Assembly (NCBI GenBank): GCA_903889245.1
Contig: CAISWQ010000100.1
Location: forward strand, 37,260 to 101,259
Direction: 5' to 3'
Origin: an uncultured Lentisphaerota bacterium
GTDB taxonomy: Bacteria > Verrucomicrobiota > Kiritimatiellia > CAIQIC01
DNA length: 64,000 nucleotides
The position numbers were made by a program, and so were the translations under genes. Under the pieces are notes generated by a model. That model worked only from the letters and a program-made list of their open reading frames with translations. It was not told the DNA's origin and searched no databases. This document shows, in pieces, positions 2,055 to 60,310 of this stretch (the stretch's first letter is position 1; the number at the start of each line of letters is the position of its first letter).

Positions 2055-2104
2055 CTTCCAAGGATTGGAAAAATAAATCCGCTTTTTTCCAAGCCTTGGA
2101 AACC
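2055..2104. repeat. Palindromic repeat cluster 1 (2 copies of TTTTCCAAGSCTTGGAAAA family)
   Basis: cttccaaggattggaaaaa ... ttttttccaagccttggaaacc, read directly from the sequence; coordinates approximate. Confidence 0.8.
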
Positions 2105-2105
2105 A

Positions 2106-3410
2106 TCAGCGGGCGAACTGTTCGGCGACATCCATCGCAATTTTCTCCCACTCCCACAGGCGTTGCGGCTGATAGCGGACGGTGGAGATGTCCTTCATGA
2201 TCAGCTCCACGTGACAGCGGCCGCCGGTCGCCTCCAAGAACTCGACGAGCGCGGCGCGTGCGCGGTCGGGATGCCAGCCATCCTCGGCAAGAATCGCCGG
2301 GTTTGGCTTGCGGCTCATGACCCAATGCGGGCCGAGCAACTCCACCGCGCGTTCGTTCTTGCACCACGGCGTGACGGAGACCTTGCGCAGGTTGGGAATC
2401 TGCTTCAGCAGTCCGGCCTTGCCATCGAGCGGCTCGCAGCAGCCGTAATAATTCAGCCCCCAGCGCCGCAGCCAGCGCAGGTCGTGTTGGATGGCGAAGT
2501 CCCAGTGCATCTCCGGCGAGACCTCGGAAAAAATCTGCGCGTTGGAACAACCCCACATGTTCCGCGGCCGGACGTGCGCGGGCTCGAACGCCGCGCCGGG
2601 CAGCGCGCGCGTGTAGCCGTAGCCGCCGGAGCCGATGCGCGTGTTGTCGCAGTCGAGCGCGAGCAGGTTCAGCGCCTCAAGCTGATCAAGCTCGGTCATC
2701 CAGGCCGCCACCATGCGCTCGACGCCGGCGTGGACGAGGTCGGGCCGCTCGACCATGTCCAGCATCGCCTCCTCGATGCCCCACCAGCGGATCAGATAGT
2801 CCCACGGCGTGAACCAGATGTGCGTCTGTCCGACCTTCCGCACCGGCATGATGCCCGCATAGGTCTCGCACATCGCCTGAAAATGCAATTCCGTCGCCAG
2901 CTCGTTGTGCGTGACGACCGGCATCCTGATCTTCTCCAGGTCGGCAAAGTCGCGGATCTGGATTTTGAAATGGCGCGAGACCACGTCGCTGGTCTCGTCG
3001 GTCTTGACGATGTCCACGTCCTCCATGATCCCGAAGTCGGTGCTATGGAACATCAGCGGGCTGGCGAGGACGTCGCTGATGATCATGTCGCCGGGCAGGT
3101 GCCGCCACTGGTAGAGCGTGCGCCGCAGGTCGCGTTCCTGGTCGCGCGCCCACGGATGCGTACAGCGCAGCGTCAGCTCGTCATCCACGTTCATCTCGTT
3201 CCAGCAGATCTCGTTGATCCAGACCATCGGACGGACCGACTCCAGGTCATTGAGTTGTTGCCACAACCGCGCCTTCTTCTGGTGGACCGGCAGCGCCGCG
3301 ACTGCGGCGAGTTCGCCGGCGAGACGGCGCAGGATCTCGCGGTCGCCCGCGCCGAGCCTGACCTCGACCGCCTGCGGCGGCGGCGTGTGATGGCTGGGAT
3401 CGTGCAGCAT
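2106..3410 (-). CDS. Hypothetical protein, 434 aa; function not assigned (possibly a URO-D-like/TIM-barrel fold, unverified)
   Basis: Long ORF with non-repetitive, protein-like composition (W/H/M/Y content unlike antisense GC-rich frames). Divergent to the B12-radical-SAM gene. No motif I can name with confidence. Confidence 0.5.
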   Translation of the reverse strand: MLHDPSHHTPPPQAVEVRLGAGDREILRRLAGELAAVAALPVHQKKARLWQQLNDLESVRPMVWINEICWNEMNVDDELTLRCTHPWARDQERDLRRTLYQWRHLPGDMIISDVLASPLMFHSTDFGIMEDVDIVKTDETSDVVSRHFKIQIRDFADLEKIRMPVVTHNELATELHFQAMCETYAGIMPVRKVGQTHIWFTPWDYLIRWWGIEEAMLDMVERPDLVHAGVERMVAAWMTELDQLEALNLLALDCDNTRIGSGGYGYTRALPGAAFEPAHVRPRNMWGCSNAQIFSEVSPEMHWDFAIQHDLRWLRRWGLNYYGCCEPLDGKAGLLKQIPNLRKVSVTPWCKNERAVELLGPHWVMSRKPNPAILAEDGWHPDRARAALVEFLEATGGRCHVELIMKDISTVRYQPQRLWEWEKIAMDVAEQFAR

Positions 3411-3718
3411 TTTTCAGCTCCCGGTTTTCCGCGACCGCGCGCAGCCTAGCCAGCGGCCCGCCGCTTGTCCACGCCCGAAACCGGGGCGGCGTTGAACGTT
3501 CGGACCCGGCGGACTGTCTACTCTTCGTGGCAAAGCCCTCTGCCGGTTACGGCGCGGGGCCGCGCCGGAAAGGCTGCCCATGAAAAGCAAACCGCAACGC
3601 CCGTTGACGCGCCCCTTGGCCGGCGCCGCCGTCCCGCAGTTCATCGCCCTGCTCGGCGTGCTGCGCGAGGCCGCCGCCCGCGGCCTGGCCCTGCTACCCG
3701 ACCCGCCCGCGCCGCCGC

Positions 3719-3771
3719 TGTTTCCAAGGCCCGGAAAAACCGGACCCGGCTTTTCCAAGCCCTGGAAAAAC
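3719..3771. repeat. Palindromic repeat cluster 2 (2 copies, one degenerate)
   Basis: tttccaaggcccggaaaaa ... ttttccaagccctggaaaaa, in the divergent promoter region between 2106..3410(-) and the radical-SAM gene. Confidence 0.75.
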
Positions 3772-3794
3772 ACCCGGCTCCACGAGGCCCCGCC

Positions 3795-5246
3795 ATGCAC
3801 CTCCACCTGATCGCGCCGCGCATGTCGCGCCGGCCGATGGACTCGGACTGGAAAACCCGCATGTCGCCGCCGCTCGCGCTGCTGACCGTGGCAGCGCTGA
3901 CGCCGCCGGAACACCGCGTGACGCTCCACGACGAAAACATCGAGCGGCCGCGGCTGGACCTCCGGCCCGACCTTGTCGGCCTCACCGTCAAGGCCGACAC
4001 CTTCGCGCGCGCCTGCGAGCTGGCGGCACATTGGCGGAGGCTTGGCGTCCCGGTGGTCTTCGGTGGCATCCATCCGACGGCGTGTCCTGATGAGTGCGCG
4101 CCGTTCGCCGACGCGCTCGTCATCGGCGAGGCCGAGCCGGTCTGGTCCGCGCTGCTCGCCGATCTGGCCGCGGGCCGGCTGCAGCCGCGTTATCAGGCGG
4201 CTGCGCCCGCCGACCTGGCTGCTGTGCCGCCGCCGCGCTGGGACCTGCTGAACGGCGGAAAATATCTGTTCACCAACACACTGACGATGAGCCGCGGCTG
4301 CCCATGGCAGTGCGATTTCTGTTACAGCAGCTCGCCCAACCTGCCGCGCGGCCATCGCATGAAGCCGGTGGCCCACATTCTCGACGAAATCCGCGCGCTG
4401 GGCACCGACCACGTGATGTTCATAGATGACAACTTCATCGGCTCACCCGGCCGCGCCCGCGAGCTGGTCGCCGCGCTCGCGCCGCTGGGCCTGACGTGGC
4501 ACGCGGCTGTCTCCGCCGACATTGGCGAGCGGCTGGAGCTGCTCGACGCGATGGCTGCGGCGGGCTGCCAGAGCCTGTTCATCGGGTTCGAGACGGTGAA
4601 CCAGGCGAATTTGCGTGGCTGCCGCAAGGCACAGAACCGCGTCGCCGCCTACGACGCGACGCTGCGCGAAATCCACGCGCGCGGTTTAATGGTCAACGCC
4701 AGCCTCGTCTTCGGCTTCGACGAGGACGGCCCGGAGGTTTTCGCCGAAACCGTGGACTGGCTGGAGCGCAACCGCGTGGCGACGATGACCGCGCACATCC
4801 TGACGCCGTATCCCGGCACGCGCCTCCACCAGCGGCTGCTCGCTGCGGGCCGCATCGTCGAGCGCGACCTGCGCCGCTACAACACCGCCTACGCCGTCTT
4901 CCAGCCCGCGCGCATGAGCGCCGCCGAGTTGGAAGCCGGTTACCGCTGGGCCTATCGCCGCTTCTACGCGTGGCGCAGCATCTGGCGACGGCAGCCGCTC
5001 GCGGCCGCGCAACGCGTCGCGTTCTGGGAGTTCAACCTGCTCTACCGCAAATTCGGCAAGCTGACGTGCTGGGCCGGGCGGCTGTTCGGGATGCGCACCC
5101 TTGCGAGGCTCGCGCGCGCCGTGGCCTACCCGCGCGCCTTGGTCGCTGGAACGCGGCCTTCGCGCGCGCCACAAGCGTGCCCGGAGGTCCCGCCCCACCC
5201 CGCCAGTTCCCATCCTTGGAAAGCAACACATGAACCGGCGGTTTGA
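3795..5246 (+). CDS. B12-binding domain-containing radical SAM protein
   Basis: CxxxCxxC motif (CPWQCDFC) with an N-terminal cobalamin-binding Rossmann-like domain (VVFGGIHPT...). Start chosen at MHLHLIAPRM (in frame with track ORF 3465..5246); the sequence upstream of that is repeat read-through. Confidence 0.85.
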   Translation: MHLHLIAPRMSRRPMDSDWKTRMSPPLALLTVAALTPPEHRVTLHDENIERPRLDLRPDLVGLTVKADTFARACELAAHWRRLGVPVVFGGIHPTACPDECAPFADALVIGEAEPVWSALLADLAAGRLQPRYQAAAPADLAAVPPPRWDLLNGGKYLFTNTLTMSRGCPWQCDFCYSSSPNLPRGHRMKPVAHILDEIRALGTDHVMFIDDNFIGSPGRARELVAALAPLGLTWHAAVSADIGERLELLDAMAAAGCQSLFIGFETVNQANLRGCRKAQNRVAAYDATLREIHARGLMVNASLVFGFDEDGPEVFAETVDWLERNRVATMTAHILTPYPGTRLHQRLLAAGRIVERDLRRYNTAYAVFQPARMSAAELEAGYRWAYRRFYAWRSIWRRQPLAAAQRVAFWEFNLLYRKFGKLTCWAGRLFGMRTLARLARAVAYPRALVAGTRPSRAPQACPEVPPHPASSHPWKATHEPAV

Positions 5247-5607
5247 ATTCTCCGGCCGGCTGCGCAGCGTGCGTTGCGCACTGCGCGGACTCGGCGTGAT
5301 GCTCGCCTCGCAGCCCAACGCCTGGCTTCATGCCGTGTGTACCACAGCGGCGCTCGCGACGAGTTGGGCCTGCGAGCTGACCGCGTTGGAGTGGTGCGCG
5401 ATCGTTACCGCCATCGTCGCCGTCTGGGTGGCGGAAGGCTTGAACACCGCGCTGGAATTGCTGGCCGACGCCATCCGGCCGGAGTTTCATCCGCTGATCG
5501 GCCGGGCCAAGGACGTGGCCGCCGGCGCGGTGCTGGTGGCGGCGCTTGGCGCCGTCGTCAGCGGCGCATGGGTGTTGGGGCCGCGCCTGTTGTCAGCCTC
5601 GGACTGA
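5230..5607 (+). CDS. dgkA: Diacylglycerol kinase (DgkA family)
   Basis: Three TM helices plus the E-x-LNTA-lE-x-laD signature (AEGLNTALELLAD). Start at MNRRFEF within track ORF 5101..5607. Overlaps the radical-SAM gene 3' end by ~17 bp. Confidence 0.8.
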   Translation: MNRRFEFSGRLRSVRCALRGLGVMLASQPNAWLHAVCTTAALATSWACELTALEWCAIVTAIVAVWVAEGLNTALELLADAIRPEFHPLIGRAKDVAAGAVLVAALGAVVSGAWVLGPRLLSASD

Positions 5608-5670
5608 TACACCCCTTGCGCTTTTGGGGGGCGTCGGCCATACTCCGCGCCGCGAGAGGGAAAACGGCGT

Positions 5671-6336
5671 ATGCGTATTGTCAAATGCGGCTGGTGGTTG
5701 ATCATCGGTTTGCTGTTGGCGGGCGTGCTGCCCGGCCTGATTTTCCACAAGCTGGAATGGATGCGGGCGGCGTGGACGTGCTACCTCACGGGCGGCGTGC
5801 TGTGCGCGTTCATGCTCTACTTTTTCCGCGACCCGGACCGCACGGCCCACGGCGATGAATCACTGCTGGTCGCGGGCGCCGACGGCCTGATCCGCAACGT
5901 GGAGACGCTGCGGGAGGACAAATACCTGCAGGCCGATGTCGTGCGTGTCAGCATCTTCCTTTCGCCGTTCGATGTGCACGTCAACCGCATCCCGATGGGC
6001 GGGACGGTGACGAAGCTGGGCTACACGGCCGGCGCGCACCTGGGCACCTACCTGAACTCGGCTTCGGAGCATAACGAGCACAGCTCCATCGTGGTCGAGG
6101 GCAGCGGCACGAAGGTCCTGGTCAAGCAGATCGTCGGCCCGATCGTGCGGCGCGTGGTGTACTGGCTGGTGGTGAACCAGAAGCTGGTGCGCGGCGAGCG
6201 GATCGGGATGATGAAATTCGGCTCGCGGCTGGACATGTACTTTGTGAAGGCCGACGTGGATATCCTCGTGAAGAAGGGCGACCGCGTGCGCGCCGGCGAG
6301 ACGGTCGTCGCGCAGCTCCGCAAAGGCAAGGCATGA
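5671..6336 (+). CDS. psd: Phosphatidylserine decarboxylase family proenzyme (Psd, short/PSD-B type)
   Basis: FLSPFDVHVNRIPMGG and KFGSRLD motifs typical of PS decarboxylase. Overlaps pssA by 4 bp. Confidence 0.82.
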   Translation: MRIVKCGWWLIIGLLLAGVLPGLIFHKLEWMRAAWTCYLTGGVLCAFMLYFFRDPDRTAHGDESLLVAGADGLIRNVETLREDKYLQADVVRVSIFLSPFDVHVNRIPMGGTVTKLGYTAGAHLGTYLNSASEHNEHSSIVVEGSGTKVLVKQIVGPIVRRVVYWLVVNQKLVRGERIGMMKFGSRLDMYFVKADVDILVKKGDRVRAGETVVAQLRKGKA

Positions 6337-7103
6337 AAGTCAACACGCGCGCCATCCTGCCTGTGGTGCTGACGCTCGGCGCGATGTGCGCGGGCTTCGC
6401 CAGCATCGTGATGAGCGCACACAGCGAATACGTCTGGGCCGCGCGCCTGATCATTCTTTCCATGATCCTCGACGGGCTCGATGGCGCGCTGGCGCGCCTG
6501 CTCAAGGGCACGAGCAGCTTTGGCGCGGAGCTGGACACATTTGTGGACATGACCAGCTTCGGCATCGCGCCTGCGCTGCTCGCCTATGAAGCGTGCTGGC
6601 ACCATTTTGGCCCGTGGGGCAAGGTGCTGGCGGGTTTCATGGTGCTCTCCGGCGCCAGCCGCCTCTCGCGCTTCCGCATCATTGATCCGCTCCGTGGCCA
6701 GGGCGGTTTTCTGGGTTTGCCCATCACGTGCGCCGGCGGGTTCGTGACGTGCATTGTTTTTGTTGCGTATTCTGGCGCGGTGCAGGAGTGGGGCTGGACC
6801 TGGTTCAACCTGACGCAGGGCCCGCTGGCCTGGACGGTCTGGACCGCCGTGACGTTGATGTTGGTGTTGCAGGTCTCGCACGTCCGCTACACCAAGGCCT
6901 CGAAACACCCGGTGGTCTTCCTCGCCGGCATCGTGCTGGTGGTCGCGCTCTTCCTCAACATCCACCTGCTGGCCTCCGTCGCGGCGCTCGGGGGCTGCGC
7001 GGCCGGTCTGTACTTTGCGTTTTTGAGTCCCTTCATCCATCCGCCCGGCGCCAAGCCGGCGCCGACGCCCCAGCCGGAGGAAAAACCGGCGGCGGCGTCC
7101 TGA
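6333..7103 (+). CDS. pssA: CDP-diacylglycerol--serine O-phosphatidyltransferase (CDP-alcohol phosphatidyltransferase family)
   Basis: DG-x2-AR-x8-G-x3-D-x3-D signature ([26 protein letters not shown]); multi-TM. Confidence 0.85.
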
Positions 7104-7125
7104 ACTCTTCCCACGAGGTGTTGGC

Positions 7126-8802
7126 ATGGCCGGCGAATATGTCTTCCAGCTTGAACGTCTGACCAAACAGTACCACCGCGTCAACGTGCTCAACGAGATC
7201 ACGCTCGCGTTTTTCTACGGCGCGAAGATCGGCGTCATCGGCGGCAACGGCTCCGGTAAATCCACCCTGCTGCGCATCCTGGCCGGAACGGATACGGACT
7301 TCATGGGCACCGCGGCCATCGCGCGCAACGTCCGCATCGGCCACCTGCCGCAGGAGCCGCAGCTCGATCCCGCAAAGACCGTCGCCGGCAACGTCGAGGA
7401 GGGCGTCGCCAGCGCCAGGGCGCTGCTGACGCGCTACGACGAAATCTGCGACCTGCTCGGCACGACGCCCGCGGGCGCGGAGGCCGATAAGCTCAACGCC
7501 GAGCTCGGCCGCATCCAGGACAAGATTGACGCGCAGGATTTGTGGAACCTTGACCACAACGTCGAGATGGCCATGGAAGCGCTGCGCCTGCCGCCGCCCG
7601 AGGCCGACGTCACCAAGCTCTCCGGTGGCGAACGCCGCCGCGTCGCGCTCTGCCGCCTGCTGATTTCCAACCCCGATGTGTTGCTGCTCGACGAGCCCAC
7701 CAACCACCTTGATGCCGAATCGGTGGCGTGGCTGGAAACCTATCTCAAAAAATTCACCGGCACGCTCGTTGTCGTCACGCACGACCGCTACTTCCTCAAC
7801 AACGTCACCGGATGGATCCTTGAGCTCGAGGGTGGCGCGGCGTTTCCCTACCAAGGGAACTACGAAAGCTGGCTCGAGCAGAAGCAGGCGCTCCTCGCCG
7901 CGCAGAGCAAGCAGGCTGCGCAGCGCAATAAACTGCTCAACCAGGAACTGCAGTGGGTCCGCCTCAATCCCTCCGGCCGCCAGGCCAAGAGCAAGGCGCG
8001 CCTCAAACGCTACGAGGAGCTGGCCGCGCAGCAGGTGGATACGCGCGAGGACAACCTCGAAATCCAGATTCCGCCCGGCCCGCGGCTCGGTGACCTCGTC
8101 GTCCGCGCCCAAAACCTGAGCAAGGAATTCGGCGAGCGCGTTCTGTTCGAGAACGTCAACTTTGACCTGCCGCGCGGCGGCATCGTTGGCGTCATCGGCG
8201 GCAACGGCGCGGGCAAAACCACGCTGCTGAAGATGTTCATGGGCCGGGAGACCGCGACCGCCGGTACGCTCTCGGTCGGTCCGACCGTCGCGCTCTCCTA
8301 TGTGGACCAGAGCCGCGACACGCTCAACCCGAACAACTCCGTCTACGAGGAGATCACCGGCGGCCGCGAGAACCTCGACCTCGGCGGCAAGCAGATGAAC
8401 GGCCGCGCCTACTGCGGCCGCTTCAACTTCCGCGGCACCGACCAGCAGAAAAAAGTCGGCCAGCTCTCCGGCGGCGAACGCAACCGCGTCCACCTCGCCA
8501 AGCTCCTGCGCGGCGGCGGTAACCTGCTTCTGCTCGACGAGCCGACCAACGACCTCGACGTGACCACATTGCGCGCGCTGGAGGAAGGCCTGACGAACTT
8601 CGGCGGCTGCGCCGTGGTCGTCAGCCATGATCGCTGGTTCCTCGACCGCGTCGCCACGCACATCCTCGCCTTCGAGGGCGACTCCAAGGTGACCTGGTTC
8701 GAGGGCAACTACGAGGCCTACCACGAACAGCGCCGCCGCCTGCTCGGCGATGCCGCCGACCAGCCGCACCGCGTCAGCTTCCGCCCGATCCACCACAGTT
8801 AA
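7126..8802 (+). CDS. ettA: ABC-F family ATPase EttA (energy-dependent translational throttle)
   Basis: Two ABC ATPase cassettes (GGNGSGKST / [18 protein letters not shown] / LSGGERNRV), ~558 aa, EttA-like N-terminus. Confidence 0.9.
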
Positions 8803-8821
8803 GGTGGTGGGATAGGGGCCG

Positions 8822-8873
8822 GGTTTTCCAACCCTTGGAAAAAAGGAGCGCGGTTTTTCCAAGGCTTGGAAAC
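8822..8873. repeat. Palindromic repeat cluster 3 (2 copies)
   Basis: ggttttccaacccttggaaaaaa ... tttttccaaggcttggaaacgg. Confidence 0.8.
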
Positions 8874-8919
8874 GGCGGAGTGCGGCGTTACCCTGCGGCA
8901 GGTTTTCGCAGGGGTCTGC

Positions 8920-9753
8920 ATGAAGACAAGCACCGGCATGTTTCGCGGCGGCGAGGGGCTGGAACTTTTTCACTGCGGCTGGTCGCCCGACGCAGCGCCG
9001 CGCGCCGTCGTGGCGCTCGTGCACGGCATCGGCGAGCACAGCGGCCGCGGCGAGGGTGCCGCCGCAGCGCTGGTCGCGCAGGGGCTCGCGGTCGCCGCCT
9101 ATGATCAGCGCGGGCACGGCCGCTCGCCCGGCCAGCGCGGGCACATCAACCACTGGTCGGAGTACCGCGAGGACCTGCGCGCGTTCCACGCGCTGCTGCG
9201 CGAAAAGTTCCCGGCGCTCCCGCTGTTCATCTACGGCTTGAGCATGGGCGGCCTCGTGACGCTGGATTATGTGCTGCGTCACCCCGAGGATGTGCGCGGC
9301 ACCATCATCAGCGGCGTGCCGCTGCAACCGACCGGCGTGGCCAAGCCGTGGCTGGTGGCGCTGGTCCGGCTGCTCGCCCGCCCGTGGCCGCAGCTCGCGC
9401 TCAAGCTGCGCCTGGAACACGCGGCGCTGTCGCGCGATACAGCGGTGGTGCGGGCTTACGAGGCCGATCCGCTGGTCCACGGGCTGATCTCGGCGCGCTG
9501 GGGCGCGGAGATTCTTGCCGCCGTCGCGTGGGTCAAGGCGCGCGCCGCCGCGGTGCGCACGCCGCTGCTGATGGTGCATGGCGAGGCCGACCGCATCAAT
9601 GCCGCCGCCGGCGCGCGGCAGTTCTGGGAGGCGGTCCATCTGCACGATAAGGAGCTCTACCTTGATCCCGGCGGCTACCACGAGCCCCACAACGACCTCA
9701 ACCGCGCGGCCGTCCTGCAAAAAATCGCGCACTGGATTCTGCGGCACCTCTGA
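8920..9753 (+). CDS. Alpha/beta hydrolase (lysophospholipase / monoacylglycerol-lipase-like)
   Basis: HGIGEHSGR ... GLSMGG nucleophile elbow ... HGEAD ... HE; start at MKTSTGMFRGG within track ORF 8866..9753. Confidence 0.8.
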   Translation: MKTSTGMFRGGEGLELFHCGWSPDAAPRAVVALVHGIGEHSGRGEGAAAALVAQGLAVAAYDQRGHGRSPGQRGHINHWSEYREDLRAFHALLREKFPALPLFIYGLSMGGLVTLDYVLRHPEDVRGTIISGVPLQPTGVAKPWLVALVRLLARPWPQLALKLRLEHAALSRDTAVVRAYEADPLVHGLISARWGAEILAAVAWVKARAAAVRTPLLMVHGEADRINAAAGARQFWEAVHLHDKELYLDPGGYHEPHNDLNRAAVLQKIAHWILRHL

Positions 9754-9843
9754 CGCTTGACGCGGCGCGGCGACGCGCTCTGCGCGCCGTCATTTTTTGG
9801 GGCGGCCACAGGCCGCCGCGAGGGTCCGCCTTGATCGTCAACG

Positions 9844-11925: not shown

Positions 11926-11946
11926 CAGAGAGTCTCCCGGGCGGCT

Positions 11947-13143: not shown

Positions 13144-13348
13144 GGTCTCTCCCGGGGTGAAACGGACGCTGGATGGGCCGCCATCTCCGCGCTGACAATC
13201 CTCGTCACGGCGCGGAACCTAACACAGCCCGCCCGCCCCATGCAAACCGGCGGCAGCGTTGCGCGCCGCCCGAAGGTTCAGGGAAATTTTCCCGCCACCG
13301 CCGTTTTTCGGGTTGCCCCCGCGCCGCGCCTGCCGCCATCATCCGCCG

Positions 13349-13903: not shown

Positions 13904-13904
13904 T

Positions 13905-14095: not shown

Positions 14096-14112
14096 TCTTC
14101 CGGGATTGCGTT

Positions 14113-16679: not shown

Positions 16680-16795
16680 CGTTCCAAGCCTTGGGAAAAT
16701 GCAAGAGGTTTTTTCCGAGCCTTGGAAAAAACGGCGTGATTTTTTCCAAGGCCCGGAAAAACCGCTGGGTCCCTTTTCCAATGTTAGGAAAAGTC
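16680..16795. repeat. Palindromic repeat cluster 4 (4 copies, ~31-bp phasing)
   Basis: gttccaagccttgggaaaa / ttttttccgagccttggaaaaaa / ttttttccaaggcccggaaaaa / ttttccaatgttaggaaaag, between convergent genes. Confidence 0.8.
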
Positions 16796-25246: not shown

Positions 25247-25300
25247 CCGTACGTTCGTTTGAATAGGAGTTTTTCTCAGGCTTGGAAAACGTGACACAGT

Positions 25301-34214: not shown

Positions 34215-34362
34215 GGTTTTCCAGACCTTGGAAACGCGCGGGGCCGGTTTTTCCAGGGCTTGGAAAAAGTCACGCCCGTTTTTTCCAAGCCTTGGAAAAC
34301 AGCGCTGAATTTTTTCCAGGCCTTGGAAAAAACAGCGCGAACTTTTCCAAGGCTCGGATACC
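34215..34362. repeat. Palindromic repeat cluster 6 (5 copies, 31-32-bp phasing) in the mntH 5' region
   Basis: ttttccagaccttggaaacg / ttttccagggcttggaaaaa / ttttttccaagccttggaaaac / tttttccaggccttggaaaaaa / ttttccaaggctcggata. Confidence 0.85.
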
Positions 34363-37642: not shown

Positions 37643-38935
37643 ATGGCCGCGTTCCATCGCCACCTCATCCCCACCCTGCTGGTGGCGCTTGTACTGGTCC
37701 ACGCCGGTTGCCTGACACTGAAAAAATATCCCGACCTGCCGCCGGCCCAACTCGACCCCGCGCCACCACGCCCAATCATGACCGCGTTACCGCCGATGAG
37801 TGAGGGGCGGGGGACGCGAGGCGGAGGACACGCGACACGCGACACGCAACGCGCGACCGTACGGCCGCCACCCGCGTCATCAGGCATGGCCGATCTGATC
37901 ATGGGCCGCGCTCCGCCGTCTCCGCCGCCACCGGTGATGCCACCGACCACCTTTCCAAGCCTTGGAAAAACCAACACCCCGGTGGTCCAACCTCTGGAAA
38001 AACCGGTGCCGGCGGTTGCCAAGCCTTGGAAAGATCCCACCACCCATGCAGTTCTGTCCTCGGCCACCACCCTGCCGCTCTCTTTCCGCCAGATCATCGC
38101 CATGCAGACGCTACTCGACCGCCAGCATGTCTCCTGCAACTGTGCTGATGGCAAGATCGGCTCGCGCACCCAGGCCGCCTTGCGCGCGTTCCAAAAGATG
38201 CGCGGTCTGAAGATCACCGGTGAACCGAATGCCGCGACACTCGCCGCACTCGGCGACCTCGACGCCGCGTTCACCAGTTACACGATCACCGCCGACGATC
38301 ACGCGCAGCTCACCCAAAACCCGACGACCTGGCTCGGCCGCTCGCAGGCGCAGCGCCTTGGTTATCAGACCATCCTCGAGGCGGTCGCCGAGCGCGGCCA
38401 CGCCACGCAGCAGGCGATTCGCGACCTTAACCCGCAGGTCGCCGTCTGGCCTGACCCGCCCGTCGGGACCACGCTGACCCTTCCCGACGCGAGCCCCGCC
38501 GCCGCGCTACCGCACGCCGCGCGTATCCGCATCTCCATTCTGAACAAGCTGGTTCGCGTGTTCGATGGCGCGGGCGGGCAGATCGCGCAGTTCCCGTGCT
38601 CGATCGCGCGCGATCCCGCCAAGCGCGAGCCGTGTGAGATCAGCGTCGCGGTCGTCGCGCCGAATCCCAACTACACCTTCGATCCCGCGCTGTTCAGCGA
38701 GGAGCCGGAGAGCCGGACGATCAAGACCAAGCTCATCATCCCGCCCGGCCCGCGCAATCCGGTCGGCGCCGCGTGGGTCGGCTTGAGCAAGACCGGCTAC
38801 GGCATGCACGGCACGCCCAAGCCGGAGGACATCGGCAAGACCGAAAGCCACGGCTGCTTCCGCCTCGCCAACTGGAACGCGCAAAAGCTCCTCCGCATCG
38901 TGGACGTGGGCACGCCGGTCAGCGTGGAAGAATAG
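37643..38935 (+). CDS. L,D-transpeptidase (YkuD family) with PG_binding_1 domain; N-terminal signal/lipoprotein-like peptide and Pro-rich linker
   Basis: PG-binding domain (SRTQAALRAFQKMRGLKITGEPNAATLAAL); catalytic HG-x-S-HGCFRL motif. The 37950..38035 palindromic repeats are in frame inside the ORF; an alternative start at 38102 (MQTLLDRQ) would lack a signal peptide. Confidence 0.65.
   Translation: MAAFHRHLIPTLLVALVLVHAGCLTLKKYPDLPPAQLDPAPPRPIMTALPPMSEGRGTRGGGHATRDTQRATVRPPPASSGMADLIMGRAPPSPPPPVMPPTTFPSLGKTNTPVVQPLEKPVPAVAKPWKDPTTHAVLSSATTLPLSFRQIIAMQTLLDRQHVSCNCADGKIGSRTQAALRAFQKMRGLKITGEPNAATLAALGDLDAAFTSYTITADDHAQLTQNPTTWLGRSQAQRLGYQTILEAVAERGHATQQAIRDLNPQVAVWPDPPVGTTLTLPDASPAAALPHAARIRISILNKLVRVFDGAGGQIAQFPCSIARDPAKREPCEISVAVVAPNPNYTFDPALFSEEPESRTIKTKLIIPPGPRNPVGAAWVGLSKTGYGMHGTPKPEDIGKTESHGCFRLANWNAQKLLRIVDVGTPVSVEE
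37950..38035. repeat. Palindromic repeat cluster 7 (3 copies), embedded in frame in the L,D-transpeptidase ORF
   Basis: ctttccaagccttggaaaaa / gtccaacctctggaaaaa / ttgccaagccttggaaag. Confidence 0.75.
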
Positions 38936-42671: not shown

Positions 42672-42848
42672 CTCCGAGGCGAGTATGCGCCGCTACGACA
42701 GGCATCGGAAGAAAATTTTTCACTACCAGATAATGCGCCGTGCTGTTTTTTCAAAGGCTTGGACGCCGCTTCTTTGCTATTGCACGGCTAGCAGCCAACG
42801 CTATAATCTGGCCCCGTTCGCAAACCTATCAAACCAAAAGGAGTAAGC

Positions 42849-45702: not shown

Positions 45703-47058
<1,356 letters not shown>

Positions 47059-48408: not shown

Positions 48409-48522
48409 GGCGCGCCATTTCCAAACCTTGGAAAACCCAACCCGTGGTTTTTCCAAGCCTTGGAAAAGAAAGGCCCGAAATTTTCCAACGCTTGGAAAAA
48501 AGACCTGTGTGGCTTTCCAATC
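48408..48522. repeat. Palindromic repeat cluster 9 (4 copies, 31-33-bp phasing)
   Basis: atttccaaaccttggaaaac / tttttccaagccttggaaaaga / attttccaacgcttggaaaaaa / ctttccaatccttggaaca. Confidence 0.85.
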
Positions 48523-48550
48523 CTTGGAACATCCCGCCGAAAGCGATGCC

Positions 48551-52917: not shown

Positions 52918-53580
52918 TTAAGGTGGTGGCGCGAAGAACGTCCATACGTTGCCGGGATTGCCTGGTGCTTTTGTCACCAGCCCATCGCGCGTGTTATAGG
53001 TTCGTACAGCATAAGAGGCCATCAAATAGTTGCCGGCCATGCCTTTGTTGTGGGTATTAGGGTAACGACCATGCGCAATCAGGGCTGCTGGAGGCACACC
53101 GATACGCGGTTGCTTGAGACGGTCAGCCGAGTTCAGGTCGGCAATCAGGATCAGGTCGCCCATCTGGCTGGTACCCTCGAAATCACGCAGGCGTGCGGGT
53201 TTGTTACCCTCGTTCCGAAAGGGCGTCCGGGCGCGGGCGCCATTGGCGCCATAACTGATGCGGTCGCCGTTGGGCGTCTGGCCGGAATCGGACACACACC
53301 AGAAGAGATTGGTGGTGTAGCCCACATAGCCCAGCAGGGCGACATCCCAAGTGTTGGTGGTGCCCGCCAGCTCCGGCAGCGCATCCTTGTTGTCGGCGGC
53401 ATATTGCGGGATGGCCTTGCCCAGTTGCGATAGGTTGTTGGCGCAGTGTGTGACCTTGCCTTTTTCCAGCGAACTGATTACCGCCGGCAGGAGAATCGCC
53501 ATCATAATGCCGATGACGGCGAGGACCACCAGCAATTCGATCAACGTAAAACCGCGCCGCTCATGGAACAAGGTTTTCAT
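52918..53580 (-). CDS. Prepilin-type N-terminal cleavage/methylation domain protein with DUF1559 (H-X9-DG) domain
   Basis: GFTLIELLVVLAVIGIMMAIL prepilin signature; start at MKTLFHERRGFTLIELL within track ORF 52918..53712. Confidence 0.8.
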   Translation of the reverse strand: MKTLFHERRGFTLIELLVVLAVIGIMMAILLPAVISSLEKGKVTHCANNLSQLGKAIPQYAADNKDALPELAGTTNTWDVALLGYVGYTTNLFWCVSDSGQTPNGDRISYGANGARARTPFRNEGNKPARLRDFEGTSQMGDLILIADLNSADRLKQPRIGVPPAALIAHGRYPNTHNKGMAGNYLMASYAVRTYNTRDGLVTKAPGNPGNVWTFFAPPP

Positions 53581-53724
53581 AATCCGTTTCCCAAGGCCGG
53601 CGGCAGTATATCGGCCGCCCTTCCGCTTGACAACGCCGCGGCGGAAAAAAGCGGTGGCGGCAGAAGAAGCCGGAAACGCCGGCTGACCGCGCCTATGGCT
53701 CTGCTTTATCACAGAAACGTGGAT

Positions 53725-53777
53725 ATTTTCCTACCCTTGGGAAAAAGCCGCTTCCACTTTCCCGTGGTTGGAAATTA
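53725..53777. repeat. Palindromic repeat cluster 10 (2 degenerate copies)
   Basis: ttttcctacccttgggaaaaa / ctttcccgtggttggaaatt. Confidence 0.55.
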
Positions 53778-54301: not shown

Positions 54302-55486
54302 TCACCACTTCGTCACCGGATTTTCACGCGTCTGCAGCGGGAAGGTGACGCGCTGGCTGCCGAGGCGGTGGGAGTCGAAGACGGCGCAGATCATTTCGAT
54401 GGTGGTGCGGCCGGCTTGGGCGTCGCAGAGCGGGGCGCGGTGCTCGCGTAGCGCGGCGAGGAGGTCGCGGACGGCGAGTTGGTGGCTGCTGACGAGCCGG
54501 GCGAGGTCGGCGATCGGCTCGGGCCGGCCGGGGCCCGCGGAACTGACCGGCACCCACGCACGCGGCTCCTTGCGAAGCTGCACCGCACCGCCCGGCAGCA
54601 GATGCACGAACGGTTCCTGATCCACGCGGAAATCCAGCGTACCCGCCGTGCCGATCAGTTGCAGGCCGAAGCCCGCCTGCTTATCGCCCGCCTTCTGCAC
54701 CGAATCGAAGAACGCCGGAATGCCGCGCTCGGTCTCGTAGCGCGCGTGAACCTCATTGCCCGCGAGCGGGCCGGTGCCCTCGGCGCCGTCCTTCACATCG
54801 GCGCGCGTCGCGGGGCGACCGTCCTGCAACACTGTCGCAGTACAGGCGGCCGGCGCGCCGCAGAAGAAGTTGATCAGGTTGAACAGGTGCGCGCCGAGCA
54901 CCCAGAGGTCGAGCGCGCCGCCGCGTTCATCCTCCTTGCCGCGCGCGCGGATTTCCAACAGCCGCCCCAGCGCGCCCTCCTTGACCAGCTTCTCCGCGAC
55001 GGGGAGCGCGGGGTGATAGCGGTTGCGGTGTGCCACGGCGAGCTTCGCGCCGCTTTTTCCGCAGGCGGCGAGGATCGCATCGGCCTCGGCAGGCGAGCGG
55101 CAGAATGGTTTCTCGCAGTAGATGCCGCGCGCGCCGGCCGCGAGCGCGGCCAGCGCCATGTCGTGGTGTTCATCTATGAAGCGCGGCGCGATGGCGACGA
55201 TGTCCGGCTTGGCCTCCGCGAGCATCGCGCGGTAATCGGCATAGCCCTTCGCCAGCTTGAGCCGCTGCTGCGCGGCGGCCAGTCCCTTCGCGTCGGCATC
55301 GGCGACGGCGACCAGCTCGACCTCGTCCGGCAGCGTGAGCCAGACCACGTCGAGGCCGTGGCCATAGTTGCCGCGTCCGGTATGGCCGATGACGGCGACG
55401 CGCAGCTTGCGCTCCGCCGCGCTCGCGTGCATCGCGAGCGCAAACCCCGCAGAAAGAGTGGAGCCGATAAACTGTCGCCGGTTCAT
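54302..55486 (-). CDS. Tat-exported Gfo/Idh/MocA-family NAD(P)-dependent oxidoreductase
   Basis: Twin-arginine signal MNRRQFIGSTLSAGFALAMHASAA; Rossmann motif VAVIGHTGRGNYGH; EKP motif (YCEKPF). Confidence 0.8.
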   Translation of the reverse strand: MNRRQFIGSTLSAGFALAMHASAAERKLRVAVIGHTGRGNYGHGLDVVWLTLPDEVELVAVADADAKGLAAAQQRLKLAKGYADYRAMLAEAKPDIVAIAPRFIDEHHDMALAALAAGARGIYCEKPFCRSPAEADAILAACGKSGAKLAVAHRNRYHPALPVAEKLVKEGALGRLLEIRARGKEDERGGALDLWVLGAHLFNLINFFCGAPAACTATVLQDGRPATRADVKDGAEGTGPLAGNEVHARYETERGIPAFFDSVQKAGDKQAGFGLQLIGTAGTLDFRVDQEPFVHLLPGGAVQLRKEPRAWVPVSSAGPGRPEPIADLARLVSSHQLAVRDLLAALREHRAPLCDAQAGRTTIEMICAVFDSHRLGSQRVTFPLQTRENPVTKW

Positions 55487-55604
55487 GATGCCTCCTGGCT
55501 CCCGGCGAGTTCGCCCCGCCGGAGCGGATGTTCCGAGGCTCACGCGCGTCCATCTCCAAGCTTCTTCTTCTATCGGACTTGCCGGCCAGGCTCGGCGTCC
55601 GCCA

Positions 55605-55658
55605 CGTTTTTCCAAGGCTTGGAAAATTCCGGTCACGGTTTTCCCATACTTGGAAAGC
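55605..55658. repeat. Palindromic repeat cluster 11 (2 copies)
   Basis: tttttccaaggcttggaaaatt / ttttcccatacttggaaagc. Confidence 0.8.
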
Positions 55659-55774
55659 TGCACTGTGTCCACTTGATTTGCGCGGGCGCTGGTGCGGCGG
55701 AAATCGGCGTTGACAGGCCGGCTGTGCCTTCTATGCTGCCCGCGCCGATCGCAACCGAACCATCAACCGGAGCC

Positions 55775-56821
55775 ATGAACATGTCGCACAGAAAATTCCC
55801 GTGGATACTCGGACTGTTGCTGGCGGCCGCCCTCGGCTGGCAGGCGTGTGCGGCGGTCGAGCCGGCCGCGCCGAAGAAAGCGCCGGCCGCCAAGAGCGAG
55901 GCGAAGAAAAGTTGGTCGCTGCCGGCGGGTGTGCGCGTCGAGCGCGACATCCTGTATGTGCCCGGCGGTGACGAGGCGCAGAAGCTCGACCTCTATCTGC
56001 CTGAACAACCTGACAACAAACCGCGGCCGCTACTGGTCTGGATTCATGGCGGCGGCTGGCGCGGCGGTAGCAAGGCGGGCGGGCCCTCGGCCGGGATGGT
56101 GGGCAAGGGTTATATCGCGGCGAGCGTGGAATATCGCTTCAGCCAGAAGGCGCTGTTCCCGGCGCAGATTCAGGATTGCCAGGCGGCGCTCCGCTGGCTG
56201 CGCGCCAACAGCAAAAAGTATGGGATTGATCCCGAGCGCGTCGGCGTCTGGGGCGGGTCGGCAGGCGGCCATCTCTCGGCGCTGGTGGGCACAGCCGGTG
56301 GCAAGCAGGCCTTCGCGCCCATCGGCGGCCACGCGGAGCAGTCGGACCGCGTGCAGGCGGTCTGCAACTTCTACGGGCCGGCCAACTTCACCTCGGTCAT
56401 GCAGCAGGCGGCTGACGACCAGAACGTCAAAAACATTTTCAAGTTCAACACGCCCACCGACCCCTATTCCGGCTTGATCGGCGTGGCGCTCGATACGGAC
56501 CGGAAGAAGACCGACGCAGTCAGCCCGGTGCATTACGTCAGCAAGGATTGCCCGCCGATGCTGATCCTGCACGGCATGAAGGACGCGCTGGTGCCGTATG
56601 CGCAGAGCGTGGAGCTGGCCGCGGCGCTGCGCGGCAAGGGCGTCGAGGTGCTGTTCCAGACGCTGCCCGGCGCGGGGCACGGCGGCCCGGTCTTCGGCAA
56701 GCCGGCGGTCAACACCATGATCGAAAAGTTTTTCGACAAGCACCTCAAGGGCGCCGACCTCAAGGTGGACCTGGTGCCCGAAGCCGAGGTGACCGTGCCG
56801 GGTGCGCCCGCGAAAAAGTAA
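55775..56821 (+). CDS. Secreted esterase/lipase (alpha/beta hydrolase, BD-FAE-like); paralog of 11947..13143 without the EF-hand tail
   Basis: Signal peptide; VWIHGGGWRGGSK; GVWGGSAGGHL; HGMKD; GAGHGG: collinear with 11947..13143. Confidence 0.8.
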   Translation: MNMSHRKFPWILGLLLAAALGWQACAAVEPAAPKKAPAAKSEAKKSWSLPAGVRVERDILYVPGGDEAQKLDLYLPEQPDNKPRPLLVWIHGGGWRGGSKAGGPSAGMVGKGYIAASVEYRFSQKALFPAQIQDCQAALRWLRANSKKYGIDPERVGVWGGSAGGHLSALVGTAGGKQAFAPIGGHAEQSDRVQAVCNFYGPANFTSVMQQAADDQNVKNIFKFNTPTDPYSGLIGVALDTDRKKTDAVSPVHYVSKDCPPMLILHGMKDALVPYAQSVELAAALRGKGVEVLFQTLPGAGHGGPVFGKPAVNTMIEKFFDKHLKGADLKVDLVPEAEVTVPGAPAKK

Positions 56822-58384: not shown

Positions 58385-58470
58385 CGTTTTCCAAGGATTG
58401 GAAAGCAGGCGGTGTGTTTTTTCCAAGCCTTGGAAAAAAATCAGGACGCTTTTCCAAGGCTTGGAAAGGT
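58385..58470. repeat. Palindromic repeat cluster 12 (3 copies)
   Basis: gttttccaaggattggaaagc / ttttttccaagccttggaaaaaaa / cttttccaaggcttggaaagg. Confidence 0.85.
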
Positions 58471-58490
58471 TCAGCGCGGCGGCCGCGGGG

Positions 58491-59498
58491 TCAGGCGAGC
58501 CACGGCCGCGGGCGGCCGGCCTGCGTGACGGCGGCGAGCGCCTTCGCGGCGATCTCGGTGTTCTCGACGACTTGGAAGTCGAACATGCCGACGCAGAGAA
58601 AATCGGCGCCGTTCTCGAAGCACCACTGGAACGCCTGGCGCGGATGAAGCGCGCCGGCGGCGAGCGTCTTGAACGCGATCCACGGCTTCTTCAGCTTCGC
58701 CATGTAGTCAATCGTCTCCTTGGCGTTCGTGCACCACATGTTGTCGTGATGGAGATTGTGGTCGGCCTTGTTGCCGTCAATCTCGTCGAAGGCGTGGCGG
58801 CCGGTCTCGGGCGTGGCGGACCAGTAGCTGTCCTTGTGCAGGGTCTTGACCCAGAAGTCGGGATCGAAGCCGGCTTCCACGCACTTGCGGACGGTCTCGA
58901 GGCTGTGCGCGCCGAGACCGCACGGCGTACCGAGGTCCTTCATGAAACTCACGATGCCCTCGAGTTCCTTCATCTGGCCGGTCTTGACCATCTTGTCGCA
59001 GATGCCGCCCTGGACATAGACGGCGTCGGCGCCGGTATCCACGGACAGCTTGATCGCGTCCTTGAGGTTGCCCGCGGCGCAGTCGCTGATCCACTGCATC
59101 TTGCCGCCGGCCTTGCGGTAGGCGTTGATGACGCGGTTGGAGACGGGATTGGTCAGCGCGGTGTTGATGCCGCGCTTCTCGGCGAGCAGGAAGGTCTCGA
59201 TGATCTTGTCATCGGTGTGATAGGCCTTGATCAGCGGCGAGACGTAGATCAGGTCACGGCTGTGCGCCCAGCCGCCGATGAGGTTGCCGCCGCAGATGAT
59301 GCGGCTGATTTCGAGGTCCTTGATCTTGCCCTTCGGCAGCGTCAGCGGCGGGATGTTGGCCGCGGGCGGGGCCGGCGGTTTGGCGGCGGCGACTTCCGCG
59401 CCGAGCGCCTGCTCCTCGTGACTGCCCAGCGCCAGCGCCGCGCCGCCGGCGACCAGGGAACGTTTGAGAAACCCGCGCCGACCGATGTTTTCCGTCAT
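58491..59498 (-). CDS. Tat-exported hypothetical protein (possibly a TIM-barrel sugar-phosphate isomerase/epimerase-like enzyme; unverified)
   Basis: Twin-arginine signal (RRGFLKRSLVAGGAALALG); no confident motif. Confidence 0.5.
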   Translation of the reverse strand: MTENIGRRGFLKRSLVAGGAALALGSHEEQALGAEVAAAKPPAPPAANIPPLTLPKGKIKDLEISRIICGGNLIGGWAHSRDLIYVSPLIKAYHTDDKIIETFLLAEKRGINTALTNPVSNRVINAYRKAGGKMQWISDCAAGNLKDAIKLSVDTGADAVYVQGGICDKMVKTGQMKELEGIVSFMKDLGTPCGLGAHSLETVRKCVEAGFDPDFWVKTLHKDSYWSATPETGRHAFDEIDGNKADHNLHHDNMWCTNAKETIDYMAKLKKPWIAFKTLAAGALHPRQAFQWCFENGADFLCVGMFDFQVVENTEIAAKALAAVTQAGRPRPWLA

Positions 59499-59571
59499 GG
59501 CTGTTTCCTTTCAACTCGGGGTGACACACCGCGCGGAAGCGTACTCCTCTTCCCCGGTGAATCAAGCGCGC

Positions 59572-60234
59572 TCACTCGGCGAGGCGGCGCAGGTGCAGCT
59601 TGCGGATTTCGCCGCGCGTCTGGTAGGTGGCCAGCCCCAGCGGCATGCAGTACTCGATCTCGCCGGCGCGCATGCCGAGGTGGTGCTCCTCGATCTCGAA
59701 GTTGACGATGCGGTCCTTGTCTATCCACGCCTCGATCTTCTCCGGCGTCACGCGCAGGCAGATTTGATACCAGCGCTGCTGCTCGAACTTGTAGGAATCG
59801 CTCGTGGAATTCTCGGAGGCGTCCATGTGGTCAATGCTGGAGATGCCGGTCAGGCTGCCGCCCCAGCCGCCGAGGACCAGCGTACAGGAGTTCGTGCCGA
59901 CCGGGAACGTCAGGCCGCAGAAGAAATCCGAGCCGCTGGTGCGCCGCGCCTCGAGCGTGATCTCGTAGTTCTGCGTCACCGTCTTGTTCGTATAGACGAG
60001 GCCGGTCAGGACATCGCCCGCGCCGATCTCCAGCACGCCGCCGGGAAGGATTTTCACCGGCCCCTCGCCGCCGAACGGAATCACCTTCCAGCCCGCGAGC
60101 GTCCGGCCGTCGAACAGTTCCGCGACCACGTTCGTCGAGGCTGGGATGACCTTGGCCTTCGCCGGCGCGTTTGTTTCCGCGCCCGTCGCCGCCACCGCAC
60201 ATAAAAAGGCACCCACCAGCAGCATGTTTTTCAT
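59572..60234 (-). CDS. DUF1080 / 3-keto-disaccharide-hydrolase-like (concanavalin-like jelly-roll) secreted protein
   Basis: Signal peptide MKNMLLVGAFLCAVAATGA; DUF1080-like segments (DGRTLAGWK..., NYEITLEARR, GWGGSLTGISS); start within track ORF 59572..60318. Confidence 0.72.
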   Translation of the reverse strand: MKNMLLVGAFLCAVAATGAETNAPAKAKVIPASTNVVAELFDGRTLAGWKVIPFGGEGPVKILPGGVLEIGAGDVLTGLVYTNKTVTQNYEITLEARRTSGSDFFCGLTFPVGTNSCTLVLGGWGGSLTGISSIDHMDASENSTSDSYKFEQQRWYQICLRVTPEKIEAWIDKDRIVNFEIEEHHLGMRAGEIEYCMPLGLATYQTRGEIRKLHLRRLAE

Positions 60235-60257
60235 AAAAGTTCCTCGCTTCGCGTCAA

Positions 60258-60310
60258 CCTTTCCAAGCTTGGAAAAAACACCGGTTCCGCTTTCCAATCC
60301 TTGGAAAATC
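60258..60310. repeat. Palindromic repeat cluster 13 (2 copies; first lacks the central base)
   Basis: ctttccaagcttggaaaaaa / ctttccaatccttggaaaat. Confidence 0.8.

Follow-up and report, generated by a model that had tools for sequence, protein, structure and literature searches.

A 19-bp palindrome, TTTTCCAAG-S-CTTGGAAAA, recurs in helically phased arrays along the window analysed here, a stretch of 64,000 nucleotides from a lake-metagenome assembled genome (MAG; BUCK21) of an uncultured Lentisphaerota bacterium of the Kiritimatiellia. The window is origin-proximal, with dnaA, dnaN and parB present. We favour the reading that the arrays are duplex-DNA sites recognised by a single putative DNA-binding protein, lineage-specific and dyad-symmetric (dimeric), and put the probability of this reading at about 0.5; the existence of this protein, its oligomeric state and the effect of its binding we infer from the sites themselves. 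Operator arrays for a dimeric or nucleoid protein were already among the explanations offered in the original prediction, which was made from the window sequence, and dyad symmetry, helical phasing, position-specific conservation, purifying selection on the core and the lack of a hairpin signature all argue for them. Spread of the kind seen in repetitive extragenic palindromic (REP) sequences and a DNA uptake signal are live alternatives, and a role at transcription boundaries ranks behind both.

Abundance, anatomy and phasing

A recount gave 33 copies in 13 clusters, at the same places as in the original prediction. Extension at 31/32 bp from good copies accounted for 32 copies in 12 clusters, and a degenerate single copy at 42748 completes the set. 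The exact 15-mer core TTCCAAGSCTTGGAA has 8 matches in the window, and the 19-mer TTTTCCAAGSCTTGGAAAA has 19 at up to 2 mismatches and 28 at up to 3; 100 dinucleotide-preserving shuffles of the window yielded 0 matches for the 15-mer and the 19-mer alike. Abundance far above expectation was therefore correctly predicted. The unbiased figure for copy density, taken from the window, is ~0.5 copies per kb. The unit is AT-rich in a GC-rich genome, although the GC content of the window is 64.0% and not the 67% given earlier. Because it contains neither a TA dinucleotide nor TGA, the unit is open in all six frames, again as foreseen.

A logo of 230 distinct copies was two-fold symmetric and held no information beyond ±9, positions ±10 to ±22 being empty. 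In a less ascertainment-biased profile, built from copies merely neighbouring a good copy, TTCC/GGAA was conserved at 97–99%, the adjacent AA/TT at 92–97%, the outer T/A at 70–89% and the -1/+1 positions at 73–84%; the centre was G or C, and A or T almost never. The strongly conserved shape is 8-3-8, TTTTCCAA-NNN-TTGGAAAA, with a central G-S-C that is preferred yet variable. Thus, of the perfect 19-bp palindrome first described, the symmetry stands and strict conservation of the centre does not. The invariant TTCC/GGAA cores are 11 bp, or one helical turn, apart. One-sided changes per arm position numbered 99, 51, 12, 17, 6, 7, 22, 32 and 79, a position-specific tolerance that, judged from these copies, is the pattern of a binding site and not uniform decay.

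Phasing was measured in the window and in all loci fetched from related genomes, from a collection of ~0.9 Mb of fragments from many MAGs; the 68 loci of the species scan described below were chosen for perfect copies, so that densities in them are inflated. Centre-to-centre spacing was 31 bp (n=40), 32 bp (n=98) or 33 bp (n=1) overall and 31 or 32 bp in the window, in keeping with the predicted 31–33 bp; the mean over 159 arrays, mostly from at least 13 MAG species, was 31.7 bp, or 3.0 turns. Two-copy arrays were commonest (89/159, 56%). Their central bases were arranged G,C in 39 cases, C,G in 17 and identically in 28, against expectations of 20.8, 20.8 and 42.4 (chi-square p = 2e-5). As the G,C arrangement exceeds expectation, the doublet as a whole tends to two-fold symmetry, which fits a dimer of dimers and also resembles the preference of REPs for inverted dimers. 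Half-sites outside palindromes were at chance level: the window has 8 loose 7-mers, and exact 9-mers numbered 9 in 635 kb. The spacers between copies are 12–13 bp long, GC-rich and, in the window clusters read directly, mutually dissimilar in look; over all arrays, those within one array were no more alike than those from different arrays. Expectation-maximisation over orientations for an oriented spacer motif returned weak information, and a modest excess of CCGG/ACCGG k-mers was inseparable from a general GC-rich k-mer bias.

Under the binding-site reading, each 19-bp site would offer two TTTTCCAA half-sites, with their TTCC/GGAA cores exposed on the same face of the helix in consecutive major grooves. 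Sites 31–32 bp apart, or three turns, would align bound dimers on that same face, where they could touch; a pair of sites would accommodate a dimer of dimers, and 3–5 sites a short filament. Since arrays occur about once per 2–5 kb wherever DNA is tolerant, in every gene orientation, the role would probably be genome-wide and structural, in nucleoid or topological organisation or as a 'self' DNA word, and not gene-specific regulation. A bolder proposal, which we hold tentatively and at less than even odds, is that the motif is an undescribed genome-wide 'DNA word' of a clade of Kiritimatiellota: three-turn-phased 19-bp doublets with a tetramer-forming reader, made and kept by selection or drive that even rewrites codons, for chromosome folding or topology or for self-DNA recognition during uptake.

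Selection on the cores and loss in relatives

The junction between dnaN and the HMG-CoA synthase gene consists of TGA, ~8 bp and ATG in motif-free relatives (DnaN ~70% identical). The window and two sister species, L081 and L082 (DnaN 96% and 93% identical), have a 4-copy array here, 141 bp in each and free of indels. Pairwise identities were as follows.

TTCCAA/TTGGAA cores: window vs L081, 47/48; window vs L082, 48/48; L081 vs L082, 47/48.
Spacers: window vs L081, 24/39; window vs L082, 13/39; L081 vs L082, 12/39.
dnaN 4-fold sites (fraction identical): window vs L081, 0.65; window vs L082, 0.57; L081 vs L082, 0.49.

Spacer identity is like that of 4-fold sites, and the spacers are therefore neutral, whereas the cores and the spacer length are strongly constrained; the three central bases vary between species. 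Purifying selection on the cores, as read from a handful of orthologous arrays, is strong.

Constraint appears to have lapsed in some relatives. L078 (JGI Ga0395987_000075; L,D-transpeptidase [LDT] 67% identical), a close relative, has 1 weak match in 21.5 kb, versus 12 in the homologous stretch of the window, and retains decayed remnants beside the Nramp start codon and in the LDT linker; L120 (GROS21 scaffold_1162) has no match in 17 kb. Near-absence together with remnants implies that the constraint depends on something that can be lost, and the simplest guess is a trans-acting factor. L078 and L120 would then serve as natural 'knock-out' lineages for finding it, and the existence of motif-rich and motif-lost sisters makes phylogenetic profiling for the protein feasible.

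Copies inside genes

The original prediction placed one cluster in frame within an L,D-transpeptidase gene, and the gene is genuine. Positions 37951–38033 lie inside ORF (open reading frame) 37643–38935, which opens with a lipoprotein signal (…LVHAGC), preceded by a GAGGA Shine-Dalgarno sequence, and has PG_binding_1 and YkuD domains downstream of the array. The copies encode FPSLGK, VQPLEK and AKPWK. In LDT orthologues at 60–75% identity the peptides FPSLGK, FQALEK and KPWK are kept in place, and remoter orthologues are without them. At the DNA level the linker palindromes are recognisable in L077, L079 and L080 and decaying in L078.

A second case reveals how a pair can originate. The cinA genes of L079 and L080 carry a motif pair between the MoCF_biosynth and CinA domains that is identical at 38/38 positions, including a shared A-to-G mismatch, with flanking codons that differ by ~18%. 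When 32 CinA orthologues were aligned, the pair shared columns with ordinary residues of motif-free relatives, and there was no indel. Moreover, the motif-free cinA of L120 has the identical 13-nt spacer ATGGGGCTGCCGG, encoding MGLP, and that of L119 already has a half-site TTGGAAAA, with TTGGAAAAA as Leu-Glu-Lys codons. With no indel and with spacer and half-site pre-existing in relatives, the sequence record indicates that the cinA pair arose in place by substitutions at 32-bp spacing and was not transposed.

Distribution across species

A scan for the exact 19-mer in one genome per GTDB species, in which all counts are lower bounds, returned at least 68 stretches. Among the matches listed, 67 came from at least 13 MAG species labelled Kiritimatiellota, 'Lentisphaerae' or 'Verrucomicrobia', with GC contents of 53% to 68%, and the outlier was one singleton in Leisingera. 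The motif thus recurs in related genomes with the same 31/32-bp period, which the original prediction had proposed to check. Carriers are uncultured Kiritimatiellota of stratified lakes and sediments. Array density differs between lineages, and presence or absence of the motif varies among related species. Viral carriage was rejected: five singletons in IMG/VR, four of them in contigs of 33–49% GC, were judged to be chance matches.

Beyond these carriers, a single phased pair (TTTTCCAAGGGTTGGAA…) was present in 13 kb of L112 (Ga0209573_1000073), a distant relative with 52% DnaN identity; it lies at 10186–10236 in a stop-to-start junction, and the motif may occur at low density outside the main clade. 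Within the window, no copies lie in a 4.4-kb insertion at 27433–31870 that is lacking in L077 and L078. This segment has a lower GC content (~58%) and encodes a HEPN/nucleotidyltransferase pair, a DprA-like protein (DNA_processg_A + LDcluster4) and a DEAD/ResIII helicase; it is a probable defence island.

Placement relative to genes

The 13 clusters of the window are listed below.

Cluster 1, 2054..2103: 2 copies (2054, 2085) flanked by two minus-strand genes, the stop of 2106-3410 being 2 nt away.
Cluster 2, 3720..3769: 2 copies (3720, 3751) in a divergent spacer, 25 nt 5' of the ATG of the B12/radical-SAM gene 3795-5246.
Cluster 3, 8824..8873: 2 copies, 21 nt past the stop of the ABC-F ATPase gene 7126-8802 and upstream of a hydrolase gene.
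Cluster 4, 16680..16792: 4 copies (16680, 16711, 16742, 16774) filling a convergent spacer, with stops 17 nt and 1 nt away.
Cluster 5, 25271..25289: a single copy, 78 nt upstream of the GH43-like gene 25368-26432.
Cluster 6, 34217..34361: 5 copies (34217, 34249, 34281, 34312, 34343) in the divergent Nramp/melibiase spacer.
Cluster 7, 37951..38033, plus strand: 3 copies (37951, degenerate 37983, 38015) in frame in the Pro-rich linker of the L,D-transpeptidase 37643-38935.
Cluster 8, 42748..42766: one degenerate copy with 4 mismatches in a divergent spacer adjoining an MgtC-family gene.
Cluster 9, 48417..48531: 4 copies, bounded by dnaN (stop 48408) on one side and the HMG-CoA synthase gene (ATG 48552) on the other.
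Cluster 10, 53726..53775: 2 copies (53726, degenerate 53757) directly upstream of the prepilin-type N-methyl-domain gene 52918-53712, minus strand.
Cluster 11, 55608..55657: 2 copies, perfect at 55608 and degenerate at 55639, in the divergent spacer that separates a minus-strand Gfo/Idh/MocA gene from a plus-strand BD-FAE esterase gene.
Cluster 12, 58387..58468: 3 copies between two minus-strand genes, 22 nt past the stop of 58491-59498 and upstream of a BNR_4 gene.
Cluster 13, 60259..60308: 2 copies (60259, 60290), 6 nt past the stop of the TonB_C gene 60315-61085, minus strand.

Cluster 6 begins 2 nt 5' of the start codon of the minus-strand Nramp gene 32904-34214 and includes a probable recent duplication at 34279–34365, and copy 60259 of cluster 13 is an 18-bp variant without the central base. 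Cluster 11 is intergenic and not within a gene, divergent genes standing on either side. Five clusters occupy divergent spacers, three of them on Pfam/database gene calls (Nramp/melibiase, MgtC, Gfo/esterase). Spacing of clusters along the window was more even than under uniform placement (coefficient of variation 0.54, P = 0.014), a result given no weight because gene structure alone regularises intergenic sites.

Gene calling in these MAGs is itself affected by the motif, as a palindrome that is open in six frames and contains TTG generates spurious ORFs and shifted starts. ORF callers were misled into a 603-aa ORF at 32904–34715 where the real Nramp has 436 aa, and into a 780-aa ORF at 54479–56821 where the esterase starts near 55.9 kb.

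Across the 68 loci and the window, arrays occupied 21/49 convergent, 19/53 divergent and 53/291 tandem spacers, in line with the predicted occurrence in promoter-proximal, divergent and convergent regions. Convergent spacers are often filled by the array, which lies 0–15 nt from both stop codons. In tandem spacers, 23/53 arrays lie within 10–15 nt of the upstream stop, and distances to the next start are broad. Start-codon distances spanned 0 to >200 nt without favouring any value, although these are unreliable, gene calls having come from a crude home-made codon-bias caller. A promoter reading was rejected, as the start distance is not fixed and promoter-like matches in the window are at chance.

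The Nramp/melibiase spacer also contains a separate 23-bp palindrome, GATACATGTTCGTAACATGTATC, at 34456–34478. L077 and L078 have a different palindrome, GATCGCACAGTTGTACAAcTaTGCGAT, at the corresponding position, and a CATAATGTGCC…GGATTAGCAAGG block nearby is conserved in the window, L077 and L078. This palindrome has the look of an ordinary operator whose sequence changes together with its regulator.

Alternative explanations

Several observations weigh against binding-site arrays. No candidate binder was found, the DNA-binding proteins of the window (ParB, ECF sigma factor, sigma-54, zinc-ribbon protein) being ordinary, and we know of no well-studied precedent among nucleoid proteins for a 2 x 19 bp site at roughly a thousand or more places per genome. 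The dnaN array required a gain of ~134 bp of DNA, and arrays therefore also grow or arrive via insertion or duplication. Spacers were slightly more similar than expected, with 78 pairs at 9 or more matches against 44.5 ± 10 under a position-specific null. An identical 12-nt spacer, TTTCGCCGGATT, occurs at L025 1513–1562 and L056 5812–5861, non-orthologous loci of two MAG species whose doublet flanks gave no tblastx homology. The match may be fortuitous or a doublet may have moved, and the single case is suggestive of some copy-and-paste spread of doublets. L081 and L082 carry 3–4 palindrome copies after the orthologue of 43837–44394, where the window has a terminator, and arrays in a terminator's place hint at a 3'-end role. 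Finally, the placement data, with their crude gene calls, reveal a hugging of stop codons at 0–10 nt (23/53 tandem arrays and about half of the convergent distances) that is a published hallmark of REPs (PMC3733652).

Spread as a REP-type element is accordingly the first rival, if an unlikely one. Here the palindrome would be propagated by a trans-acting transposase, like the REP-associated tyrosine transposases (RAYT) or another, that acts on single-stranded DNA hairpins, and the cell would tolerate or co-opt copies at 3' ends as stem-loops of RNA or single-stranded DNA. The genomic distribution closely matches the published one, in which singletons, dimers and clusters lie near 3' ends, convergent copies <20 nt from both ORF ends and unidirectional copies near the upstream ORF, and in-frame intragenic dimers or groups encode 20–30 residues; such families are abundant in Opitutus terrae, a bacterium of the Planctomycetes-Verrucomicrobia-Chlamydiae (PVC) group (PMC3733652). 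The inverted (G,C) form prevails among doublets, a parallel to the HH dimers of REP families, related species differ in presence or absence, and the gain at dnaN and the doublet spacer shared by non-orthologous loci would be expected. Hence the REP-like label of the original prediction suits the distribution. It does not suit the sequence. GTAG and CGTC tags define two REP superfamilies (Di Nocera et al. 2013, PMC3733652), and in our arrays GTAG/CTAC adjoined 12/298 copies versus 8/298 in controls and CGTC/GACG 29/298 versus 45/298, at or below background, with no flanking asymmetry whatever in the logo.

REPs are thought to act as RNA or single-stranded DNA (PMC3733652), and the motif does not evolve as a hairpin. 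With copies oriented by flanking co-directional genes, there was no strand-biased wobble pairing (sense-strand G·U 24, A·C 24), and double changes were at the independence expectation, about one third of them compensatory. An RNA or single-stranded DNA hairpin was rejected on these grounds and on the -5.1 kcal/mol of a single unit. In contrast to the units of REPINs (REP doublets forming hairpins) and bacterial interspersed mosaic elements (BIMEs), spacers are fixed in length and unconserved in sequence. The cinA pair arose without insertion, 36% of divergent spacers are occupied while REPs have been reported chiefly from gaps between ORFs that run in one direction or converge, and selfish spread alone leaves the strong position-specific purifying selection unexplained.

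An equally improbable rival is a DNA uptake signal, akin to the uptake signal sequences (USS) of Pasteurellaceae or the DNA uptake sequences (DUS) of Neisseriaceae, that would be preferred by an uptake receptor and have accumulated by molecular drive through transformation. The very high copy number (~0.5 per kb) of a lineage-specific word common to at least 13 species and conserved at orthologous sites would be in character, as would decay on loss of competence or of the receptor. Uptake sequences favour poorly conserved amino acids and genes (Findlay & Redfield 2009, PMC2817400) and are missing from genes without homologues in relatives (PMC2817400); our motif has an in-place origin within coding DNA, in tolerant and poorly conserved protein segments, and is missing from the 27433–31870 insertion and from low-GC stretches. 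However, known signals are asymmetric 9–12-mers that act singly and predict neither an obligate 19-bp dyad nor 31/32-bp phasing, half-sites alone are at chance level, and the only DprA-like gene of the window is in the probable foreign island. Copies are also overwhelmingly intergenic, versus 34.5–65% of USS/DUS in ORFs (PMC2817400).

A transcriptional role, either as sites of a global regulator or as binding sites of a polymerase-blocking protein that marks the ends of transcription units (a roadblock terminator or insulator), appears more doubtful still. In its support, many convergent spacers are filled completely and hold no other hairpin, terminator-like consensus matches are at chance in window positions 1–20000 (22 vs 17.5 ± 3.9), arrays in L081 and L082 stand at the junction of the window's canonical bidirectional terminator, and some arrays abut start codons, Nramp at 2 nt for example. 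Yet arrays are conserved within the LDT and CinA genes upstream of catalytic domains, where a roadblock would truncate expression; the distance to the downstream start has no preferred value, and the motif is without a -10-like element. The genome does have canonical terminators, such as a bidirectional one at 43778–43817 (AAAAGAGCGGCGGGGCTACGGCCCTGCCGCTCTTTTTTTT, -34 kcal/mol) between convergent genes, and an array about every 2–5 kb in all orientations is far beyond any known regulon.

An intrinsic RNA-hairpin terminator or a CRISPR-like repeat-spacer array is effectively refuted. A palindrome between T and A runs and a repeat with unique spacers of constant length have a superficial appeal. 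As a terminator, the unit was already described as poor, and its -5.1 kcal/mol compares with -34 kcal/mol for the genuine terminator of the same window; its polarity is wrong, with the U-run 5' of the stem and the A-run 3', and there is neither G·U strand bias nor an Rfam match. CRISPR arrays have repeats of ~23–55 bp, spacers of at least 21 bp from foreign DNA, and one or few long arrays with cas genes. Here a 19-bp repeat has spacers of 12–13 bp and at most 5 units per array, in 13 places in 64 kb and thousands of loci, and orthologous spacers are inherited and drift neutrally.

The original prediction's miniature inverted-repeat transposable element (MITE) finds no support, and a terminal repeat of an insertion sequence (IS) was rejected. 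No target-site duplications were present at any boundary or length tried (flank identity 0.25–0.30, as in random sequence), at least one pair formed in place without insertion, and lone half-sites are confined to the 9 isolated exact ones in 635 kb, none paired. ParB-parS and Noc-binding-site (NBS) systems were also rejected, since sequence and half-site spacing are unlike those of the 16-bp parS (TGTTNCACGTGAAACA) or the 14-bp NBS palindrome. Canonical parS was found neither in the window at up to 3 mismatches nor in 956 kb of related loci at up to 2, which is uninformative for the motif.

Other features of the window

The origin-proximal genes are dnaA (45712–47058), dnaN (47314–48408) and parB (51949–52899), the last without an adjacent parA. 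No Rfam families and no tRNAs (ARAGORN) were detected in the window. Two further repeats were encountered. At 15675–15895, in a 590-bp non-coding gap after a squalene-cyclase-like gene, a 112-bp unit occurs twice in tandem at 89% identity, each with the palindrome GATACCTAGAACTACTAGGTATC and without an Rfam match. At 13918–13984, just past an ECF sigma-factor gene, 8-bp and 24-bp tandem repeats of GGAGTGAT have an inverted partner near 14080–14110, and the region 13895–14180, including the complementary ATCACTCC-rich stretch, folds at -111 kcal/mol.

Comparison with known systems

Literature searches found no paper containing the literal 15-mer TTCCAAGSCTTGGAA, nothing relevant on palindromes, repeats or intergenic elements of Kiritimatiellota, and nothing on genome-wide repeats at three helical turns. 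The arrays were compared with five kinds of described element.

Cooperative operators appear to have similar geometry. Tandem NrdR boxes lie 31–32 bp apart, NtrC sites 32 bp apart and Lrp/AsnC sites at ~3 turns, and the Fur and DtxR/IdeR families recognise 9-1-9 operators such as TTAGGTTAG-S-CTAACCTAA. Like these, the motif has an odd-centred dyad, half-sites one turn apart and neighbours three turns apart. Operator arrays, however, number from a few to ~100 sites in regulon promoters, whereas the motif occurs about once per 2 kb in all kinds of spacer, convergent ones included, and in coding linkers.

With REP/BIME families the motif shares short palindromes in hundreds to thousands of copies, lineage-specific, arranged as singletons, mostly inverted dimers and clusters, hugging the 3' ends of ORFs, occasionally intragenic and in frame, and differing in content between related species. 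It differs in the lack of tag, asymmetry and covariation, in rigid 31/32-bp phasing, in divergent spacers being equally common, and in the in-place substitution origin of at least one pair and position-specific purifying selection. The motif is thus a test case for 'selfish repeat' versus 'selected genomic signal', with a REP-like distribution and binding-site-like evolution. Rickettsia palindromic elements and intragenic REPs likewise place palindromes in frame in functional genes, where they encode short peptides in tolerant regions, but the Rickettsia elements are insertions of 100–150 bp, whereas the cinA pair replaced codons without a change in length.

HIP1 (GCGATCGC) of cyanobacteria is a hyper-abundant palindrome maintained by selection within and between ORFs (Xu, Lawrence & Durand 2018, PMC5861425); there is no evidence for a peptide, RNA or gene-regulatory role, and a role in chromosome or nucleoid structure has been proposed (PMC5861425). 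The motif resembles HIP1 in being a hyper-abundant palindrome under selection in both compartments. HIP1 is an 8-mer, mostly intragenic and unarrayed, and our motif is 19 bp long, AT-rich in a GC-rich genome and set in helically phased arrays. USS and DUS are, like the motif, genome-wide over-represented lineage words recognised as duplex, with in-place origin by point mutation, conserved orthologous positions and absence from recently acquired DNA; they are asymmetric single 9–12-mers, in contrast to an obligate 19-bp dyad in mostly phased and mostly intergenic doublets.

The parallel with uptake sequences and HIP1 rests on independence of orientation, location in tolerant DNA, conservation between and within ORFs and a motif-free insertion. 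Roughly 1% of the carriers' DNA lies in one phased, selection-protected palindrome, and if the binding-site reading is correct, a major DNA–protein interaction of the phylum would have gone unrecognised so far. On the bolder 'DNA word' proposal the arrays would join USS/DUS and HIP1 as a third class of hyper-abundant genomic signal, and would be the first of them in which helical phasing is obligate. It is this phasing, together with obligate dyad symmetry, that sets the motif apart from uptake sequences and HIP1.

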